Source: Patescibacteria group bacterium (lineage in GTDB: Bacteria > Patescibacteriota > Patescibacteriia > UBA9570 > JAHJKD01). Taken from it: DNA of 64,000 nucleotides. The stretch covers positions 23,568-87,567 of the forward strand of contig JBAZVM010000005.1 of NCBI GenBank assembly GCA_041660885.1, given 5' to 3'. Below, piece by piece: positions 364 through 62,973 of the stretch; positions within the stretch are counted from its first letter, which is position 1, and the number at the start of each line of letters is the position of its first letter. A model generated the notes under the pieces. That model did not search any database, was not told where the DNA came from, and was given only the letters and a program-made list of their open reading frames with translations. Both the position numbers and the translations under genes were made by a program.

Positions 364-1449
364 TTATTCGCCGGTTATACTATTGGTATCGCCATAGCCG
401 TTGATCACATCAACTACGCGCTGGCTGAAATATGGGGCCACTTCCTCGGCAAATTCCGCGCTGGGATGGGAATCGTAAGGGTCGGCCGCGTGCGCATCGG
501 TTAAATAAAGCGTGCCATCTGTTTCCAAAGAATAAAAATCCCAAACAAAAATATTATCATTAGAAACATCCCACTCGTCTTTCACCCAGTTAAAGAACGT
601 TTGCGCCCGCTCGGCTTGATCTTCATCAGTACTTCCTTGGGTTAAAGCCGCGCCTGTCCAGACTATGAATTTGGTATCAGGAAATTCGAGCATCTTTTCT
701 TTCAGGGCATTATACTGCAATTTATAATTTTCTACGGTTTTAGTGTCCGAAGATATATCCGCGTTGCCAGTGTCCGCTTCTATACCGCTAACCGGAAAAC
801 AATGCTTGAATACCACCACGTCATAAGAGTTGGTTAATATTTCTAAAGTCGGTTCGTTTAAATACTCATTATTGCCGGCATGATTCACCCAGATGTTCCA
901 ATAGTCATAAGGATAATTATTCCAGCCGTATGGATCGCTTTCCGGAAAATTCTGCTGAGTAATTTGGTAATCAGTGCTGTTGGCGCCGTTATAATCGGAG
1001 AACCAAGATTCCACCCCGCCATCCCAGATAACTCCGCCGGTGCTGTGATGCAAAAAAATTATATTGGCATTCATAACAGTCGGATCGTAAATCGTGCCTT
1101 CCATCTTGGTTGTGGTTTGAATTTTATCGGAGTACTGGCCGTAATTATCCCCTTTTCTGGCGCGTACTTTAAAATAATAAGTGGTGTCCGCATCCAGCGA
1201 TTTTACGGTTCTCGTTCTATTTAGCGATCGAACCTTTCTTACGGTGGAATATTGGCCATCGGTTTTAGTGAGCACTTTTACCTGATAATCATCCGCGCCG
1301 GTGATCTTTTTCCAGGCTAAATCTATTTTATGCTTATAACGCTCAACCACATGCAGATTATTAACTTTGCCCACAGCCGCTTGGCTGCAGCCAACGCCAA
1401 CAAAAAATACGCTAACTGCCACAGTAAGCGCTAATAAACTTTTTTTCAT
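364..1449 (-). CDS. secreted/lipoprotein-like protein with fibronectin type III domain
   Basis: Signal peptide MKKSLLALTVAVSVFFVGVGC. FN3-like segment DLAWKKITGADDYQVKV...TTYYFKVRARKG. The C-terminal ~240 aa are unassigned. Confidence 0.7.
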   Translation of the reverse strand: MKKSLLALTVAVSVFFVGVGCSQAAVGKVNNLHVVERYKHKIDLAWKKITGADDYQVKVLTKTDGQYSTVRKVRSLNRTRTVKSLDADTTYYFKVRARKGDNYGQYSDKIQTTTKMEGTIYDPTVMNANIIFLHHSTGGVIWDGGVESWFSDYNGANSTDYQITQQNFPESDPYGWNNYPYDYWNIWVNHAGNNEYLNEPTLEILTNSYDVVVFKHCFPVSGIEADTGNADISSDTKTVENYKLQYNALKEKMLEFPDTKFIVWTGAALTQGSTDEDQAERAQTFFNWVKDEWDVSNDNIFVWDFYSLETDGTLYLTDAHAADPYDSHPSAEFAEEVAPYFSQRVVDVINGYGDTNSITGE

Positions 1450-1470: not shown

Positions 1471-2565
<1,095 letters not shown>

Positions 2566-2608
2566 CTATAATCTAACCTGCTGTAAATTTATATTAAAAC
2601 CCGTAAAA

Positions 2609-3220
2609 ATGCAATTTTCCATAAAAAAAAGTTTTAATTGGCCTAATACCATCAGTGTTATTCGAGTTTTATTGGTATTATTAATAATTTCTCTGCTTTT
2701 TATAGACAATTTTAATTTCAAGGTTACTGCCTTTATTTTAGCGATTATTATTATTCCCTTAGATGCTTTAGACGGTTATTTAGCCAGAAAGCTAAAACAA
2801 GAAACTAGAATCGGCGCTTTATTGGATATTTTTAGTGATCGCCTTGTAGAATTCCTATTTTGGGTGGCCTTTGCCAGTTTTGGTCTGGTTGTTATTTGGG
2901 TGCCAATAATTATTATCACGCGCGGCTTGGCCACGGATATCATTCGAAGTTTCGCCATGAAAAAAAATATCGAGCCTTTTAAAATGATGCACGGAAAATT
3001 TACTACTTGGCTGGTGGCATCTAAATTTAATCGCTTTTTTTATGCTTTTTTGAAGGCCGTGGTTTTCCCTTGGCTGATTTTGCAAATGCTTTTATCCACG
3101 GCGCCGGATTGGTTTATTATTACAGGACAAATTTTGGTATGGCTTACGGTAGCATACTGTATATTACGCGGTATCCCTGTGCTTTGGGATGCTTATTATT
3201 TATTTAAACGAAAAAAATAA
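2609..3220 (+). CDS. CDP-alcohol phosphatidyltransferase family protein
   Basis: Motif DALDGYLARKLKQETRIGALLDIFSDRLVE (D-G-x2-A-R...G-x3-D-x3-D) plus multiple TM helices. Start moved to ATG 2609 (MQFSIKK) because the track ORF from 2429 overlaps tgt. Confidence 0.85.
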   Translation: MQFSIKKSFNWPNTISVIRVLLVLLIISLLFIDNFNFKVTAFILAIIIIPLDALDGYLARKLKQETRIGALLDIFSDRLVEFLFWVAFASFGLVVIWVPIIIITRGLATDIIRSFAMKKNIEPFKMMHGKFTTWLVASKFNRFFYAFLKAVVFPWLILQMLLSTAPDWFIITGQILVWLTVAYCILRGIPVLWDAYYLFKRKK

Positions 3221-3867
3221 TGGCTATTGCTTTTTTTGATATCGATCACACCATTGTTTCTTCCATTTCCGCGGAAAAAATATTTTTTTCTTATCTGACC
3301 AAAAAAAGAAGAATTCCGTTAATTAATTATTTTCGCGTGGCAACGTTTTTTTTAGAAAATATTTTATTCAATCCATATAAAGCGACGCTGCAAAACAAAC
3401 AATATTTAGCTAATCAAAATAAAGACGAAGTTATAAAATGGGGCAAAGAATGTTTTTACGCAGAAATAAAAAAGAAAATGCCAAAAAGCGCCCTCCTAGC
3501 CGTTACCGCGCATAAAAAGAAAGGTGATAAAATTATTTTATTAAGCGGCAATTTATTTTTTCTGGCGGAATTAATAAAGGATTATGTTGGCGCCGACGAT
3601 ATCGTTTGCACGCAACTTGAAACCAAAGAAAATTTATTTACCGGGAAAATCATTGGTTTGCATGCTTATAAAGAAGCAAAGAGAACTCTACTTAAAGAGT
3701 ATATTAAAAAGCATCACTTAGAAAAACAAGAAATATATTGTTATGCCAACAGTATAGCGGATCTGCCCTTTTTGGAATGCGCTGATCATCCCATTGCCGT
3801 CAATCCCTCCTGGCATTTAAAAAAAGAAGCGTTAGCGCGTAATTGGCCTGTGGTTTTTTACACTTAA
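3220..3867 (+). CDS. HAD-IB family hydrolase/phosphatase
   Basis: N-terminal FFDIDHTIV (DxDxT nucleophile motif), 215 aa. Start overlaps the upstream stop (TAATG). Confidence 0.8.
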   Translation: MAIAFFDIDHTIVSSISAEKIFFSYLTKKRRIPLINYFRVATFFLENILFNPYKATLQNKQYLANQNKDEVIKWGKECFYAEIKKKMPKSALLAVTAHKKKGDKIILLSGNLFFLAELIKDYVGADDIVCTQLETKENLFTGKIIGLHAYKEAKRTLLKEYIKKHHLEKQEIYCYANSIADLPFLECADHPIAVNPSWHLKKEALARNWPVVFYT

Positions 3868-10349: not shown

Positions 10350-11366
10350 TTATTTAATTGCTTTTATTAATTTCAATTCTTCCAGAGAAAAAAGGCTGGG
10401 ATTATTTAGGATATCCGTAGAATTTATCAAATCTAACGCCACCAAATAAGATAATACGGAATCAGGTACAGCCAGAGCATCTTTAAAATGATCCAAACTC
10501 TCAAATTTGCTTTTATAAGTTTTTTCCAAAAATAGTTTATATCCCAATATTTGTGAAACCAATTCTATGCCTTGGCGCGAGTAACGCGATAAAGCATGAT
10601 GAAAATATAAATTCAACACCACAAGCGGAGTAAATATAAACGCGGCAAAAAGAATATCGCCGAAATTTTCTTCGCCTCCCGCGCCCATGGCAGCGAGCAA
10701 ACCAATGCATAAAATAAAAAAACCGATAACGCTGTTTTTCTTATTTTTTTTCCATATATAGTATGCGGAAACCGTCATGGGAAAACTAATAAAACATAAA
10801 CCCAAAATAAAATAAACAAATTGATCCCCTTCTATGCCGGAGGGATAATATTGCATCCAAGAAAAACCGCCTATAATGAAAGAAATTGCCACGCCAATAG
10901 CTAAAAAAATGGAATTACTAGAAAAATATGGCTTATATTTTCGCCATATTGCGGTATTTAGTAGCGCGCTCATGTCCCAAGCATCGCCGTGGCTTTTTTG
11001 GCTGATCAATAAACTTATTTCCGGCAAAAGCCAAAGCATATCAAAAATTTCATTTTCCGGGCTGCTTAGTTGATCTTTGACAGACTTGTTTTTTAATTTT
11101 ATTTTAAAGCAATATCCCTTATCTTTTAAAAGATCAATGTATCCTTTGTGATATGCTTCTAGAATGGCCGCTTCTAAGCATTTATCATCGTAATATTTAT
11201 TTAATAAAAAACGCATGGCGGCCGGCGGCAAATTCAAAGGAGGTTCGTACAAAGGAATAACTGTTTTTAAATCCGGATCATTTCCTTTAAAATACCAAAC
11301 AATTACATAATAAATAAAGGTAAGTATAATGGCGCTTGCTAATAATAGAAAAATGCTGTATGTCAT
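10350..11366 (-). CDS. DUF2207-like polytopic membrane protein
   Basis: GNDPDLKTVIPLYEPPLNLPPAAMRFLLNKYYDDKCLEAAILEAYHKGYIDL resembles the central DUF2207 segment (recalled from memory). Several TM helices. Confidence 0.6.
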   Translation of the reverse strand: MTYSIFLLLASAIILTFIYYVIVWYFKGNDPDLKTVIPLYEPPLNLPPAAMRFLLNKYYDDKCLEAAILEAYHKGYIDLLKDKGYCFKIKLKNKSVKDQLSSPENEIFDMLWLLPEISLLISQKSHGDAWDMSALLNTAIWRKYKPYFSSNSIFLAIGVAISFIIGGFSWMQYYPSGIEGDQFVYFILGLCFISFPMTVSAYYIWKKNKKNSVIGFFILCIGLLAAMGAGGEENFGDILFAAFIFTPLVVLNLYFHHALSRYSRQGIELVSQILGYKLFLEKTYKSKFESLDHFKDALAVPDSVLSYLVALDLINSTDILNNPSLFSLEELKLIKAIK

Positions 11367-13705: not shown

Positions 13706-13735
13706 TTTGACCATATTTAATAATCACATTAAGAT
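13706..13735 (+). promoter_or_regulatory. putative promoter reading into GC-rich island 1
   Basis: TTGACC (13706..13711), 18-nt spacer, TAAGAT (13730..13735), all in AT-rich native-looking DNA just upstream of the island. Confidence 0.35.
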
Positions 13736-13759
13736 TGATTCACAACCAGGAGGAATAAC

Positions 13760-14086
13760 GTGGCACCAAGAGCATTTGTGCTAATACCAGGCCTCGGAGA
13801 AGTTCCGCAGAGCCTCGCTCTGTCGGAGCTCGACTTCAAGGCACTCGACGACGGAGAGAAAGCGTTCTCCGGAATCGTCGGATTCGCTCTCGCGGGCGTG
13901 TTCACGAAGTACGATACCGAATTCGTGCTCACCGATACCGGTGTCGCTATCAGAGACAATCAGCTCTTCCGTGGATGGGCAGGGCTCATCATCGCCATCA
14001 AGCAAGGAAATCGTCTCGCCATTAGGCAGCACCCGAACTGCTTGGTGTGCGAGGATAGTCAATGCCCGCTCAACCCAAAAACCTAG
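13760..14086 (+). CDS. hypothetical protein (108 aa) of foreign, GC-rich composition
   Basis: GTG start 5 nt after a perfect AGGAGGA (13748..13754). High-GC codons (CTC, GAC, TTC, GTC). An antisense 93-aa ORF (13781..14062) has equally high third-position GC, so the strand is not fully resolved. The plus strand is preferred because of the SD and upstream promoter. Confidence 0.5.
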   Translation: MAPRAFVLIPGLGEVPQSLALSELDFKALDDGEKAFSGIVGFALAGVFTKYDTEFVLTDTGVAIRDNQLFRGWAGLIIAIKQGNRLAIRQHPNCLVCEDSQCPLNPKT

Positions 14087-14121
14087 GAGGAGGAACGCCG
14101 CGCTCGAACTGAGCCCGGCTC

Positions 14122-14165
14122 AAGACCCACGGCGAAGACCACAAGTCACATTCAACGTGGGTCTT
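14122..14165 (+). terminator. GC-rich hairpin downstream of the island-1 ORF
   Basis: AAGACCCACG (14122..14131) pairs with CGTGGGTCTT (14156..14165) across a 24-nt loop. Only a weak T tract follows (gcATTTat), so terminator function is uncertain. Confidence 0.3.
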
Positions 14166-14183
14166 CGCATTTATAGAGAAAAA

Positions 14184-14531
14184 TTAATGAGGAAATAAAA
14201 ATTCGCCAACCAGCATAAACACCCAAAACGCGGCGCCTAAAACAGCTGGCACCAAGCCCACCCACATGGCCCAAGAGCGTTCCCCTTTTCTGTACGCCAG
14301 AATCGCCACTACCAAAGCCACGATAGTCATGACAAATACCATTATCACGCTGACAATGCCAATAGTTCCGGCGATGTTTTCGTTCATAGAAGATAAAAAA
14401 GGCATAAGAACCGCTGCGGAAATTCCTAAAATCGGCCCGCTGCTAATAGATATTAAACCTAAAATCATAGATATCCAGCAAATTTTAGTTTTAGGCTTCT
14501 CATTAAAATGACTGATAATTTTTTTTGACAT
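14184..14531 (-). CDS. small polytopic membrane protein (115 aa)
   Basis: Three or four hydrophobic helices, AT-rich native codon usage. Confidence 0.65.
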   Translation of the reverse strand: MSKKIISHFNEKPKTKICWISMILGLISISSGPILGISAAVLMPFLSSMNENIAGTIGIVSVIMVFVMTIVALVVAILAYRKGERSWAMWVGLVPAVLGAAFWVFMLVGEFLFPH

Positions 14532-15267: not shown

Positions 15268-15531
15268 TTAATTCTTGCTTCGATATTTCAGCCAAATTTT
15301 CTTAGCAAAAGATAGCGAAGCGGTTGATAACACAAAACCGATAGTGGGAATAATGGCGGTAACAAAAGGTTGTTCCGCTTTTATAATGTATAAAAATAAA
15401 CACACTACCAAGTAAGTTAAAATGGCTACTAGTATTATTCTGACCCAGCTGGTTTCCCAGGCTTTGTCCCCTTCCACGCGCTTATTGCGGGATTTAATTT
15501 CGTTGATTTCTGTTTGAAGGTCGTTTCTCAC
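15268..15531 (-). CDS. small membrane protein (87 aa)
   Basis: Coiled N-terminus (EINEIKSRNKRVEGDKAWETSW) followed by two TM helices. Confidence 0.6.
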   Translation of the reverse strand: MRNDLQTEINEIKSRNKRVEGDKAWETSWVRIILVAILTYLVVCLFLYIIKAEQPFVTAIIPTIGFVLSTASLSFAKKIWLKYRSKN

Positions 15532-15697
15532 AAGTCAATTTTAAATTTTTCACACCTTTTAATTATACTCCTAAAAAAGACAAAAATCAAGGTCTTGACT
15601 GTTCATATTTAGATTGATAATTCGTGAACTGCACCCATCGAATCCCTCCAGGTACAGTTGTTGGAATTCTGATGGGTATCCCCCTTTTGTTTTCCTC

Positions 15698-16486
15698 CTA
15701 CAGCGGGTACTTGTCGGCGAGAGCCTTCATGGCTCGCAGCGCGATCTCGGACGCCGCTTCCTCGCCGCAGACCGCGAACTCGTTGGTCACGCGGTTCCCG
15801 TAGATGGCGTTGATGGTGCCGCACCGCATGCCACCGTGTGTGGCGCACCACACGAAGATGGCAGCGGACTCCATGGAATAGCACAAGACCCCGCGTTGGA
15901 CCAACTCATCGTGAGTCTGGCGCAGACGCTCGGGGATGTAGCCCATGTCATCGGGGCGCGCTTGCCCTTCGTTGAAGTCATCGGTCGTAGCTTCGATGCC
16001 CACGAAGTGCCTCTTGTTCAGATCCTCGGCCGCTTTTTCCAGTGCGGTCACGATGCGGTAGTCGGCCACGGCCGGATACTGGATGGGCGCCCAGTTGAGG
16101 GATGCGCCATCTAACCGCACGGCCGCGGTTACGATCGCGACATCGCCCGGCTTCGGATTGGCCCACAGGGCGGAACACGATCCTACCCGGATGAAACGCC
16201 GCGCACCGCTGCGCACGGCTTCGGGCAGGACGATGCCCACGCTCGGTCCACCCATGCCCGTGGTGACCACGGAAATGGGCATTCCTTCGTACAATCCGGT
16301 GTAGCTGAGCAGACCCCGGTGATGACCCACCTTGTGAACATCCTCGAAGTAGGTCTCTGCGATCATGGTCGCCCGTTCCGGTGATCCCACGAGCAGGCAG
16401 TGCTCCGCCAGATCCCCTTCACTCGTTTCCAGATGGTACTGTTTGTCGCCGGTCATGGGCCGGTCAGCCTTGGTTTCCTCAGTCAA
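15698..16486 (-). CDS. udp: uridine phosphorylase (PNP/UDP family), foreign GC-rich composition
   Basis: 262 aa, colinear with E. coli Udp as I remember it: VVTTGMGGPSVGIVLPE, RFIRVGSCSAL, GDVAIVTAAVRLDGASLNWAPIQYPAVADY, YSMESAAIF. TTG start 8 nt after AAGGAG (16500..16495). Strongly G/C-ending codons. Confidence 0.9.
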   Translation of the reverse strand: MTEETKADRPMTGDKQYHLETSEGDLAEHCLLVGSPERATMIAETYFEDVHKVGHHRGLLSYTGLYEGMPISVVTTGMGGPSVGIVLPEAVRSGARRFIRVGSCSALWANPKPGDVAIVTAAVRLDGASLNWAPIQYPAVADYRIVTALEKAAEDLNKRHFVGIEATTDDFNEGQARPDDMGYIPERLRQTHDELVQRGVLCYSMESAAIFVWCATHGGMRCGTINAIYGNRVTNEFAVCGEEAASEIALRAMKALADKYPL

Positions 16487-16534
16487 ATTTCACACTCCTT
16501 TGTTGCCAACATCATCTTTCGACGAAGTAACACA

Positions 16535-16563
16535 ATGTTATCAAACGAGTATATTCTAGTCAA
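16535..16563 (-). promoter_or_regulatory. putative promoter of udp in AT-rich DNA
   Basis: Minus strand reads TTGACT (16563..16558), 17-nt spacer, TAACAT (16540..16535), followed by a ~40-nt leader to the SD. Confidence 0.35.
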
Positions 16564-16572
16564 AATAAAAAG

Positions 16573-16589
16573 TCCTCTTATGTGGAGGA
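16573..16589 (-). terminator. weak hairpin plus T-run after the glycosyltransferase gene
   Basis: Minus strand reads TCCTC-cacataa-GAGGA followed by CTTTTTATTTT. The stem is only 5 bp. Confidence 0.3.
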
Positions 16590-16614
16590 GATAATACAAT
16601 CGCAAATAAAAAAC

Positions 16615-17754
16615 TTACAACAAATAATACAAATCTTCTGTTTTTTTAACTATGCGCTCCCAATTGTATTTATCTTTAATAAAATTACGCGCTTGCTCCC
16701 CTGTTTTCTGAACAAGATCTTTATGCTTGATGAGATAAATCATTTTTTCCGTTAAATCGGAAACATTGGAAACTTTAAAAGGAATGCCGAAGTGGCCGAT
16801 GGTTTCCAGATTTTCCGGAATGTTGGAAATCAAAGCGCACCTGGCAAAGCTCATGGCTTCCAGAATGGCAATGGAAAGGCCTTCTGATTCCGAAGGATGA
16901 ACATAGAAATAAGCGTGCGCGTAAAGCTGGTCTAATATTTGACCGCGCTGAAAACCGATAAAAATAATATTTTTATCTTCCTTGGCGATTTCTTTTAAAT
17001 AGGCTTCGTAATCCGGGGTGTAGCTGGAAGCACCCGCGATTAACAACTTCATGCCCCCTCTGATATCTTTGGGAATTTTTTTGAAAGCCTCTATCAGATA
17101 ATGAATGCCCTTATGTCGAACCAGCCGAGCCACGGTAATAATATATTTTTGCGGGGTAAGATGCCATTTTTTTAAGCGGTCTGTACCGGTTATTATTTTT
17201 GTATCCATGCCATTGGGAATGTAAGCGATTTTTTTATTAAAACGCTTTTGGCAGTATTTTTGTATGGCGTGGGAAACCGCGATAGTGGCGTGCGGAAAAT
17301 ACAAAGCCGCCCATTCGCCAAAACTGAGATACAATCGGGCAACGGCTCCCCATTTTTTATGGAAGCGATCAATAGAATGAAAAGTAACCACCACTTTAGC
17401 GCGCGGCTTGAATAATCTGGGTATCCAGCACAAAGTGGCCGGCCCTACGCCATGGTAATGAATGATATCCACGGGCTGAAAAAGCACATGCAAAGAAGAT
17501 AGAAAAACATAAGTCCAGGTATCCAAATGCTTGGTGCGTATAGAAGGTCGGCGGATTAGGCGAATCCCCTGCCAAACATCTTGTTTGGTGGCCATATATT
17601 TCGGCCGCACGTAAACGGTTACTTGATGCCCTTGTTTAGCCAGATGCGTGGATAAATCCTCCACTTGCACATCTACCCCGCCGTCATGATAAAACGGCAC
17701 GGACTTTTGGCCGATCATGGCAATGCGCAATGGCTTGTTTTTTTTGTTATTCAC
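16615..17754 (-). CDS. glycosyltransferase family 4
   Basis: RIAMIGQKSVPFYHDGGVD N-terminus and HPSESEGLSIAILEAM (E-x7-E). Start codon GTG at 17754. Confidence 0.9.
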   Translation of the reverse strand: MNNKKNKPLRIAMIGQKSVPFYHDGGVDVQVEDLSTHLAKQGHQVTVYVRPKYMATKQDVWQGIRLIRRPSIRTKHLDTWTYVFLSSLHVLFQPVDIIHYHGVGPATLCWIPRLFKPRAKVVVTFHSIDRFHKKWGAVARLYLSFGEWAALYFPHATIAVSHAIQKYCQKRFNKKIAYIPNGMDTKIITGTDRLKKWHLTPQKYIITVARLVRHKGIHYLIEAFKKIPKDIRGGMKLLIAGASSYTPDYEAYLKEIAKEDKNIIFIGFQRGQILDQLYAHAYFYVHPSESEGLSIAILEAMSFARCALISNIPENLETIGHFGIPFKVSNVSDLTEKMIYLIKHKDLVQKTGEQARNFIKDKYNWERIVKKTEDLYYLL

Positions 17755-33246: not shown

Positions 33247-33630
33247 GGGGATGTTTATAATCGATAGAAGACGTTCCTTAATAATCTTCCAAGCCAAGCG
33301 CCGGACTTGTAAACTGGCAAATTATAAGTGCAAACTTATTCAATTCAGCTAAGGAAAAAGTGAGAGCTTTCGCTCAAAGCTTTGCTTTAGCTCCTTCTGT
33401 CGCCTAATTCGCGACAGCATCCGATTTTCTTTCGCCTCAAAGGAAAAACCCGGGTGTAAAAATCGAGGCTTATTTCCGGTTTTGCCTAGAATCGGATTGA
33501 AATCATCAGGCTCGGCTTTATAATTTTTCGTTTGTTTTCAAGTTATAAAGCTTAAATATTAAGCAAAATACGCTTGGTAAACGATTATTCTGGTTTCTTC
33601 TAGACGCGGGCGTAATACCCGCCATCTCCA
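33247..33630 (+). ncRNA. ssrA: tmRNA (SsrA)
   Basis: 5' GGGGATG pairs with 3' CATCTCC (33623..33629), including a G3:U wobble. T-arm GCGGG-cgtaata-CCCGC, discriminator A at 33630, CCA not encoded. Internal tag frame GCA AAC ... GCC TAA (33330..33407). Immediately follows smpB. Confidence 0.85.
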
Positions 33631-33678
33631 CACGAACTTATCTAAAAACAAATTTCAAATAATAAAAGCGAGTTAATA

Positions 33679-35791: not shown

Positions 35792-35870
35792 GGGGGCGTA
35801 GCTCAGTTTTGGTTAGAGCGTCGCACTGTCACTGCGAAGGTCGCGGGTTCGAGTCCCGTCGCTCCCGCCA
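35792..35870 (+). tRNA. tRNA-Asp (GTC)
   Basis: Manual fold: acceptor GGGGGCG/CGCTCCC, D-arm GCTC..GAGC, anticodon stem TCGCA/TGCGA with loop CTGTCAC, T-arm GCGGG-TTCGAGT-CCCGT, discriminator G. CCA is encoded. Confidence 0.9.
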
Positions 35871-62747: not shown

Positions 62748-62899
62748 ATTTTTTTATTTAAACGCGTCTATCGAAAGCATTAATAAATAAAAGAAAATGA
62801 GCGTAATAATTATGTATTGGAAAAAATCAACTTGAGATGTTTAGTAAGTATACCAAATTATTTATTAACAGGCAAAAGTTTGCCATTTCGCGAAGATAG

Positions 62900-62973
62900 T
62901 CGGGGATCCGAGACTCGAACTCGGAATCTCACGCACCCGAAGCGTGCGCCATAGCCAATTAGGCCAATCCCCG
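62900..62973 (-). tRNA. tRNA-Pro (CGG)
   Basis: Manual fold on the minus strand: acceptor CGGGGAT/ATCCCCG, anticodon stem CACGC/GCGTG with loop TTCGGGT, T-arm CCGAG-TTCGAGT-CTCGG, discriminator A. CCA not encoded. Confidence 0.88.

Follow-up and report, generated by a model that had tools for sequence, protein, structure and literature searches.

Uridine phosphorylase (Udp; EC 2.4.2.3) converts uridine and phosphate to uracil and ribose-1-phosphate for the salvage of pyrimidines and ribose, and the enzymes of E. coli (structure 1k3f) and S. pyogenes (structure 3qpb) are hexameric members of the NP-I superfamily. Patescibacteria are not known to synthesize nucleotides de novo and are dependent on salvage. 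For horizontally acquired genes of atypical composition, Lawrence and Ochman reportedly put forward the concept of amelioration; passenger genes may also be carried by mobile insertion cassettes and MITE-like elements, in which they are bracketed by terminal inverted repeats. The udp gene considered here lies on the minus strand of a 64,000-nt stretch (the window) of one contig of a Patescibacteria group bacterium, and is probably an old, partly ameliorated horizontal acquisition of an intact Udp-type gene from within or close to Patescibacteria. It resembles an ameliorating acquired gene in its atypical GC content and codon usage, its status as a single-gene island that borders a variable region, and the synonymous loss of G and C from udp in two daughter lineages. 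It differs from a typical acquired gene in that its locus has no integrase, tRNA or repeat signatures, its acquisition appears to be old (dS of approximately 0.6 or more), and the same anomaly is found in many AT-rich Patescibacteria.

The predicted protein scores 111.4 bits against PF01048 (PNP_UDP_1; cut-off 25.1 bits), with residues 29 to 246 aligned to positions 2 to 222 of the 233 in the profile, and this score above the gathering threshold places it in the NP-I superfamily. The two top NCBIfam models are both uridine phosphorylase equivalogs, TIGR01718 (220.1 bits) and NF008383 (165.2 bits), with a model of DeoD-type purine phosphorylases behind them at 116 bits, but the protein differs from curated Udp in scoring below the equivalog cut-offs (280.3 bits for TIGR01718 and 262 bits for NF008383). 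The top solved structures are all uridine phosphorylases aligned from end to end: 3qpb (E = 2.7e-42), then the Udp of E. coli, Salmonella and Vibrio, with E values of approximately 1e-41 to 1e-42 for solved Udp structures. When the protein is compared with the sequence of E. coli Udp and its phosphate-, ribose- and uracil-binding residues, all of these are kept: His8, Arg30, Arg48, Arg91, Phe162, Gln166, Arg168, Met197, Glu198 and Arg223 are identical, Tyr195 is also counted as conserved, and Thr94 is replaced by Ser. The Gln166/Arg168 pair sets Udp apart from the DeoD-type purine phosphorylases. The binding residues are near-invariant among 32 homologs, and the HMMER alignment to the solved chains shows the same columns. 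From its sequence, the window gene is concluded to be intact and to encode a Udp-type phosphorylase of pyrimidine nucleosides that belongs to a divergent subfamily and for which uridine would be the substrate. The protein also differs from curated Udp in its clade, which is distinct, consists largely of Patescibacteria as far as names are available, and has a conserved N-terminal 'ADxP' extension. Because the conserved 'ADRP' motif is encoded 5' of the ATG from which the public 252-aa gene call is read, the 262-aa reading from a TTG codon is preferred, and the public call probably starts 10 codons too late. An exact look-up of the public version of the protein (P0001) returned no contig.

The best 120 database matches to the window protein have 59% to 77% sequence identity, and the named sources among them are almost all Patescibacteria (Uhrbacteria, Magasanikbacteria, Vogelbacteria, Parcubacteria SG8_24 and 'Patescibacteria group'), two being called only 'bacterium'. 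An identical public protein is annotated from a Patescibacteria MAG; the homologs of the neighboring GT4 protein are from Uhrbacteria, Falkowbacteria and Patescibacteria; and the contig of one 59% match among the GTDB loci was binned as Candidatus Binatia. The title 'uncultured Gammaproteobacteria' of many GTDB loci is apparently a placeholder, and such titles were left out of the taxonomy. As far as names allow, the clade appears to be largely CPR and not actinobacterial or from other high-GC phyla. The phylogeny of Udp consists of NJ trees only, in which the window protein and its closest homolog form a deeply branching pair (bootstrap 87%) in a clade largely labelled Patescibacteria. The placement that the preliminary description named as contrary to its reading, with relatives of the host instead of high-GC taxa, is half borne out: the relatives are labelled Patescibacteria, but the most frequent sister group of the pair (P0045, P0059, P0075, P0078 and P0118) has a bootstrap of only 28%. 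Three members of this sister group were retrieved on contigs of 57% to 61% GC, where the gene is similar in composition to its neighbors, and family members on contigs of 63% to 65% GC have a GC3 of 0.90 to 0.97. For the ABC permease of the candidate sister contig L033, the only matches were proteins with no source name or with the label 'bacterium'. The sister-group runs SRR22387871, SRR22387914 and SRR22388028 are numerically near the run of the closest homolog (SRR22388163), which suggests that they come from the same study. A high-GC source, as first proposed, is still the simplest explanation of the composition, but a donor outside CPR is not supported, because nearly all of the named homologs at 59% to 77% identity are from Patescibacteria; the most economical guess is that the donor was probably another, GC-richer Patescibacterium. 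In a metagenome scan, the window protein had a single relative (L032, 67% identity). Viral scans with the block of sequence 3' of udp and with the Udp profile returned no matches, and so do not point to a phage vector. No paper that joins uridine phosphorylase and Patescibacteria turned up in a literature search, and a broader search on CPR, horizontal transfer, GC content and nucleosides found nothing specific.

In a scan by sliding 120-nt windows, the GC content had a mean of 39.8% and a standard deviation of 7.6 points, and 55% GC or more was reached over one long segment only, an island of 889 bp (Table 1). The 60-nt bin at 15720-15779 has a G+C fraction of 0.683, in agreement with an earlier hand count of 41 in 60. 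A second, weaker GC island is present at 13735-14342. The content of the 889-bp island is one ORF, udp, of which the GC fraction is 0.625 overall and 0.63, 0.46 and 0.78 at the three codon positions, compared to 0.48, 0.34 and 0.46 in the adjoining GT4 gene. The window has 48 ORFs of 150 aa or longer that do not overlap, and among them udp is the extreme outlier, both its GC and its GC3 being 7.3 standard deviations above the mean; the GC3 of the host is 0.41, and no other ORF of the 48 has a GC3 above 0.53. If the protein is recoded with the codon frequencies of the host, the expected GC is 0.505 and the expected GC3 is 0.465, compared to 0.627 and 0.778 observed; thus about half of the GC excess comes from a protein rich in Gly, Ala and Arg and about half from foreign codon choice. 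CTG is used for 11 of 19 Leu, ATC for 12 of 13 Ile and CGG for 7 of 17 Arg, where the host fractions are 0.12, 0.23 and 0.07. The foreign composition and mostly G/C-ending codons that had been noted by inspection are therefore borne out, and udp deviates from its host in composition and codon usage as a horizontally acquired island does.

The island is predicted to be one self-contained transcription unit, made up of a promoter, a short 5' UTR, a Shine-Dalgarno sequence, a TTG start codon, the coding sequence and a 3' tail. Its transcript is predicted to start near 16528 and to end at the hairpin near 15630 or just past it. The full-length Udp-type ORF and its ribosome-binding site were confirmed, its promoter and the GT4 terminator were recovered by a signal scanner, and every descriptive statement of the preliminary description was found to be correct. 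The -35 box of the udp promoter is inside a 23-nt run that is identical in the closest relative, the contig L001, where the -10 box is TAATAT. By eye, the 5' UTR contains a candidate small hairpin, TCGTC-GAAA-GATGA, which is TCGTC-AAAA-GACGA in L001. The suggestion that a captured gene was wired to a host promoter is not supported: udp homologs in unrelated contexts also have their own AT-rich promoter, 70 to 90 nt upstream of a GC-rich coding sequence.

Table 1. Positions of sequence features of the udp locus in the window
Feature	Position	Strand	Remarks
GC-rich compositional island	15623..16511	.	60.7% GC in a 39.5% GC background
udp-like gene, NP-I family nucleoside phosphorylase, 262 aa	15698..16486	-	TTG start, TAG stop, GC3 0.78
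Shine-Dalgarno sequence AAGGAG	16495..16500	-	8 nt 5' of the TTG start (16486); kept in L001
udp 5' UTR	16501..16534	-	Approximately 86% identical to L001
Sigma-70-like promoter TTGACT-17-TAACAT with TG extension	16535..16563	-	From signal scanner
Intrinsic terminator of upstream GT4 gene	16573..16589	-	From signal scanner; upstream limit of the udp unit
Imperfect inverted repeat or hairpin ACCCATC(A)GAAT ... ATTCGATGGGT	15633..15677	-	In udp 3' UTR; no T-run after it
25-nt block GGAGGGATTCGATGGGTGCAGTTCA	15625..15649	-	100% identical in L001; holds SD-like GGAGGG and ATG
Putative 9-codon mini-ORF MGAVHELSI* (MGAVQQLLV* in L001)	15609..15638	-	From sequence
Promoter-like TTGATT-17-TATAAT of next transcription unit	15562..15590	-	Homology to L001 stops just past it

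The closest homolog of the window protein (P0002, 77% amino acid identity) is encoded on L001, a contig of an independent Logan assembly of another sample (SRR22388163), where udp (62.7% GC in a 39.9% GC background) comes after a GT4 gene with 88% identity to that of the window. The GT4-udp intergenic regions can be aligned, the identical 23-nt run passing through the terminator tail and the -35 box, and the alignment of the 3' regions extends approximately 140 nt past the udp stop codon, crossing the compositional junction and reaching the promoter that follows; elsewhere the window and L001 are rearranged. Between the two, the GT4 genes have a dN of 0.065 and a dS of 0.55 to 0.75, the udp genes have a dN of 0.16 to 0.17 and a dS of 0.8 to 1.4, and the proteins differ by 12% (GT4) and 23% (Udp). 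The island must have been present in the ancestor of the window and L001, because independent insertions with identical junctions are implausible; on this comparison of sequences, the transfer of udp appears to predate the split of the two organisms. The capture had been called recent, which is not supported, the same island with the same junctions being present in L001 at a dS of 0.55 to 1.4. The sharpness of the compositional boundaries is what would be expected of an artifact of assembly or binning that joined a foreign GC-rich fragment into an AT-rich contig, but L001 has the same junctions on both sides, homologous AT-rich flanks and ordinary substitutional divergence throughout; since the junctions are shared by an independent assembly, the window assembly is not chimeric, and an artifact is exceedingly improbable. 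No empty site was found in the collections searched, in which L001 is the sole close relative and carries the island; the next-nearest relatives of the GT4 gene (62% to 65% identity) have no udp beside it, and synteny is lost at that distance.

Downstream of udp, the motif GGAGGG (15649..15644), a spacer of 5 nt and the nine codons ATG GGT GCA GTT CAC ... TAA (GGAGGG-5 nt-ATGGGTGCAGTTCA) are present as previously described, when they were interpreted as the cut-off start of a second donor gene that marks the recombination breakpoint. The stub is retained in L001 with the same SD, ATG and length, and its first 25 nt, which are identical at all 25 positions, constitute the longest identical run in the locus apart from GT4 (the longest run in the udp coding sequence is 21 nt), form the 3' arm of the inverted repeat, and overlap a second possible hairpin. 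Since this block is identical between lineages with coding sequences that are 77% identical, the stub is considered to be under constraint and not decaying, and the segment after udp is best read as a constrained 3' element, not a dead gene fragment. A gene start of the MGAVH type, as a donor operon with a matching downstream gene would have, was found in none of 38 related loci, and GC-rich relatives have a canonical terminator directly after the udp stop codon. The 25-nt motif occurs once in the window, and viral contigs do not contain it. By MFE, the 3' region does not fold significantly more stably than shuffled sequences (z = -0.8 and -0.5), the hairpins preferred by the window and by L001 differ and are mutually exclusive, and Rfam has no family for the 5' element of udp, its 3' element or the second GC island. 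The 75 nt past the stop codon are probably a conserved functional 3' element, in which a hairpin would serve 3'-end formation or stability, or which would be a binding site for a protein or the ribosome; translation of the mini-ORF is another possible role. An integron-cassette (attC) reading of the inverted repeat was set aside: by eye there are no RYYYAAC/GTTRRRY cores and no cassette array, and the gene has its own promoter. A tRNA-att origin of the 3' block was dropped, because ARAGORN found no tRNA or tRNA fragment nearby. SD-like motifs and short ORFs are also present after udp in three other loci (L012, L019 and L015).

These observations bear on the proposal that udp was captured recently from a high-GC host or neighbor outside CPR, for example an actinobacterium, and that the start of the donor's next gene was left at the breakpoint. 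Such a capture would account for the foreign composition and for GGAGGG followed by ATG beyond the stop codon, and the SD-like motifs and short ORFs after udp in three other loci are compatible with it. It is nevertheless very unlikely, since the island is common to L001 at a dS of 0.6 to 1.4, the named homologs with at least 59% identity are nearly all from Patescibacteria, the stub is identical in its first 25 nt and has no counterpart of MGAVH type among 38 related loci, and the GC-rich relatives have a terminator immediately after udp. The stub is not suited as a marker of a recombination breakpoint.

The preferred explanation is that udp entered an AT-rich lineage of Patescibacteria horizontally from a much GC-richer organism, likely another Patescibacterium, and that it would since have been drifting toward the composition of its host, by independent synonymous loss of G and C and by replacement of GARP residues with AT-encoded ones. 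At the 114 4-fold sites of udp where the amino acid is conserved, the base is A or T at 20 in the window and at 33 in L001, and at 7 in both copies, compared to 5.8 expected by chance; the corresponding number of shared sites in GT4 is 31, compared to 16.5 expected. Because the A/T sites of udp are not shared beyond chance, the ancestral gene would have had approximately 95% (92% to 100%) G/C at these sites, with independent decay in both lineages, and an ancestral GC3 of approximately 0.9 to 0.95 would imply a donor genome of approximately 60% to 65% GC or more. At positions conserved in the family, changes in which GARP residues were lost or FYMINK residues were gained outnumber the reverse by 9 to 2 in the window and by 14 to 4 in L001. 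Polarization of synonymous changes by parsimony, a method that is biased here by outgroups that are GC-rich and nearly saturated, gave an excess of G/C-to-A/T changes in several lineages with AT-rich hosts, although the support is weak. That synonymous sites change faster in udp than in GT4 is as expected if a GC-rich sequence is exposed to AT-biased mutation; a fast turnover of A/T sites under a force that favors G and C would look similar.

That such a force exists is the main alternative from vertical inheritance: udp would be an inherited gene of Patescibacteria, of which the coding sequence is kept GC-rich by a gene-specific force, candidates being selection on synonymous sites or mRNA and GC-biased gene conversion linked to frequent recombination. 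Much of the pattern across the family is consistent with this. The udp gene exceeds its flanks in GC content in all 33 related loci (by 6 to 27.5 points), in no case falls below its host, and ranks first among the ORFs in GC3 in 20 of the 28 loci with enough ORFs. In approximately 14 AT-rich hosts, the GC-rich stretch matches the coding sequence, from the start codon to about 60 nt past the stop codon, and the gene's own promoter is AT-rich. The syntenic pairs (the window with L001, and L013 with L019) keep the GC3 excess despite 4-fold sites that are near saturation, and A/T at 4-fold sites turns over faster in udp than in GT4. However, a high GC3 is not an intrinsic requirement of the gene, because it is host-like in some hosts, both GC-rich (0.72 in udp versus 0.72 in L017 and 0.83 versus 0.75 in L018; 0.69 to 0.72 versus 0.59 to 0.73 for neighbors in L033, L038 and L039) and AT-rich, where it ranges from host-like (0.37 versus 0.38 in L005), through intermediate values (0.48 versus 0.35 in L021; also L019 and L006), to extreme (0.88 versus 0.31 in L029). 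Further, synonymous sites evolve faster in udp than in GT4, not slower; decay from an ancestor of about 95% G/C explains the 4-fold pattern quantitatively; there are other, unrelated GC-rich islands in the same genomes; and the genomic context of udp differs among loci, even for closely related copies. In L015, the island contains two GC-rich genes, cdd (cytidine deaminase) and udp. The spread of GC3 is better accounted for by a series of transfers, of various ages, from GC-rich into AT-rich lineages than by a universal selective requirement. The one-sidedness of the excess is not fully explained by such transfers and keeps the alternative of a maintained GC content alive, although on balance it seems rather unlikely.

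With regard to the means of transfer, there is no integrase and no tRNA within 19 kb of udp (the closest ones being at 35792 and 62899), no direct or inverted repeats flank udp in the window, and no recombinase domain was found in the adjoining ORFs. The DNA downstream of the udp unit differs between the window and L001, with DUF5655 genes and further GC-rich segments, so that udp borders a variable region. In one subclade (L004, L009 and L011), the promoter, udp and terminator are bracketed by inverted repeats of 55 to 85 nt (consensus GTTATCGGA...TTTTGCCC...TTTTTTATCGCWACAATTTTC) that are found nowhere else in the loci; in having inverted repeats that enclose the whole unit, these copies are similar to cassettes with terminal inverted repeats. 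In contrast, the window (15350-16750) and L001 have no terminal inverted repeats, the core of the repeat is absent from the window, and neither a transposase nor a target-site duplication nor a further copy of the repeat was observed. As a tentative extension, udp of Patescibacteria may be a recurrently mobile, self-contained salvage cassette that passes from GC-rich to AT-rich CPR, the window copy being one old landing of a gene shared across the community; in a variant of this idea, the GC-richness would be kept up by an active process, such as biased gene conversion in the course of frequent recombination.

The locus adds a member to a known family of enzymes and to a known type of horizontally acquired island, and it is the behavior of the family that is modestly interesting. 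The source and retention of salvage enzymes bear on the symbiotic lifestyle of Patescibacteria: in the AT-rich lineage of the window, the Udp-type enzyme would be the product of an acquired gene that was kept across speciation, and the foreign appearance of udp in many CPR genomes that are AT-rich suggests that it has moved repeatedly between members of the radiation instead of being captured from hosts.

The public version of the window's Udp protein (P0001, 252 aa) begins at an internal ATG (16456, minus strand), and an alternative TTG start lies at 16486 on the same strand. The 262-aa product is favoured over P0001 because of the conserved N-terminal ADRP motif and the arrangement of AAGGAG, 8 nt and TTG. 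Two RNA genes elsewhere in the window were each called by one method: a tmRNA gene (33247-33633, plus strand) scores 102 bits with Rfam and is absent from the ARAGORN output, and a tRNA-Pro gene (62899-62973) called by ARAGORN is missing from the Rfam list at the gathering threshold.

L039, a contig of 61% GC from the candidate sister group to the Udp pair of the window and its closest relative, L001, carries two PNP_UDP_1 genes in tandem. The reading frame of the udp homologue at 2161-2948 of L030 is interrupted by a stop at codon 97, and several of its catalytic positions are substituted; these changes mark it as a probable pseudogene.

The 5' UTRs of udp in distant clades and in differing genomic contexts have in common a small hairpin based on CTCGTYG, which hints that the leader moves together with the gene. 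Directly 3' of udp, several clades have an SD-like GGAGG or AAGGAG followed by a start codon and an ORF of 9-18 codons; these short ORFs often overlap the terminator hairpin, and their peptides differ between clades, with no conservation.

In L004, L009 and L011, which form a close udp subclade with AT-rich hosts, the entire promoter-udp-terminator unit of approximately 1 kb is flanked on both sides by inverted repeats of 55-85 nt whose arms are 85-96% complementary. The repeat core, AAAATTGTWGCGATAAAAAA, has no other occurrence in the 37 loci and the window that were searched. The repeat-bracketed unit looks like a mobile cassette that has no transposase of its own.

Coordinates of features in and around udp loci
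Feature	Locus	Position	Strand	Detail
Inverted repeat arms	L004	1291-1343 / 2297-2360		
Inverted repeat arms	L009	298-349 / 1308-1372		
Inverted repeat arms	L011	9890-9912 / 10866-10888		
5' UTR with hairpin	window	16501-16534	-	TCGTC-GAAA-GATGA
5' UTR with hairpin	L001	3370-3400		
5' UTR with hairpin	L025			ATCTC-GTCGT-GAGAT
5' UTR with hairpin	L021, L023			
SD-like motif and short 3' ORF	L012, L019, L015	first ~70 nt past stop		
SD-like motif and short 3' ORF	window	15609-15649		
Tandem PNP_UDP_1 genes	L039	92-919 and 1054-1905		
Isolated GC-rich ORF	L001	4468-5445	-	
Isolated GC-rich ORF	L021	11049-11954	-	
Isolated GC-rich ORFs	L025	1828-3646 and 6749-7159		
Isolated GC-rich ORF	L029	10941-11345		
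Isolated GC-rich ORF	L007	16619-17065		

A second, weaker GC-rich island of the window (13735-14342; 53% GC, peak 62%) lies 1.3 kb from the udp island; its ORFs overlap on both strands, and Pfam and Rfam searches of it gave no match. Immediately upstream of udp (61% GC) in L015 is a cytidine deaminase gene (PF00383, 53% GC), and together they form a two-gene GC-rich island of pyrimidine salvage (2272-3672) in a host of 38% GC, adjoined by another GC-rich ORF (1095-2183, 57% GC). Isolated GC-rich ORFs besides udp are also found close to it in AT-rich Patescibacteria loci; among the five loci tabulated they include a 2OG-Fe(II) oxygenase and a histidine phosphatase, and several have no match in Pfam. 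The presence of these further isolated ORFs near udp suggests that GC-rich genes in general are flowing into AT-rich Patescibacteria.
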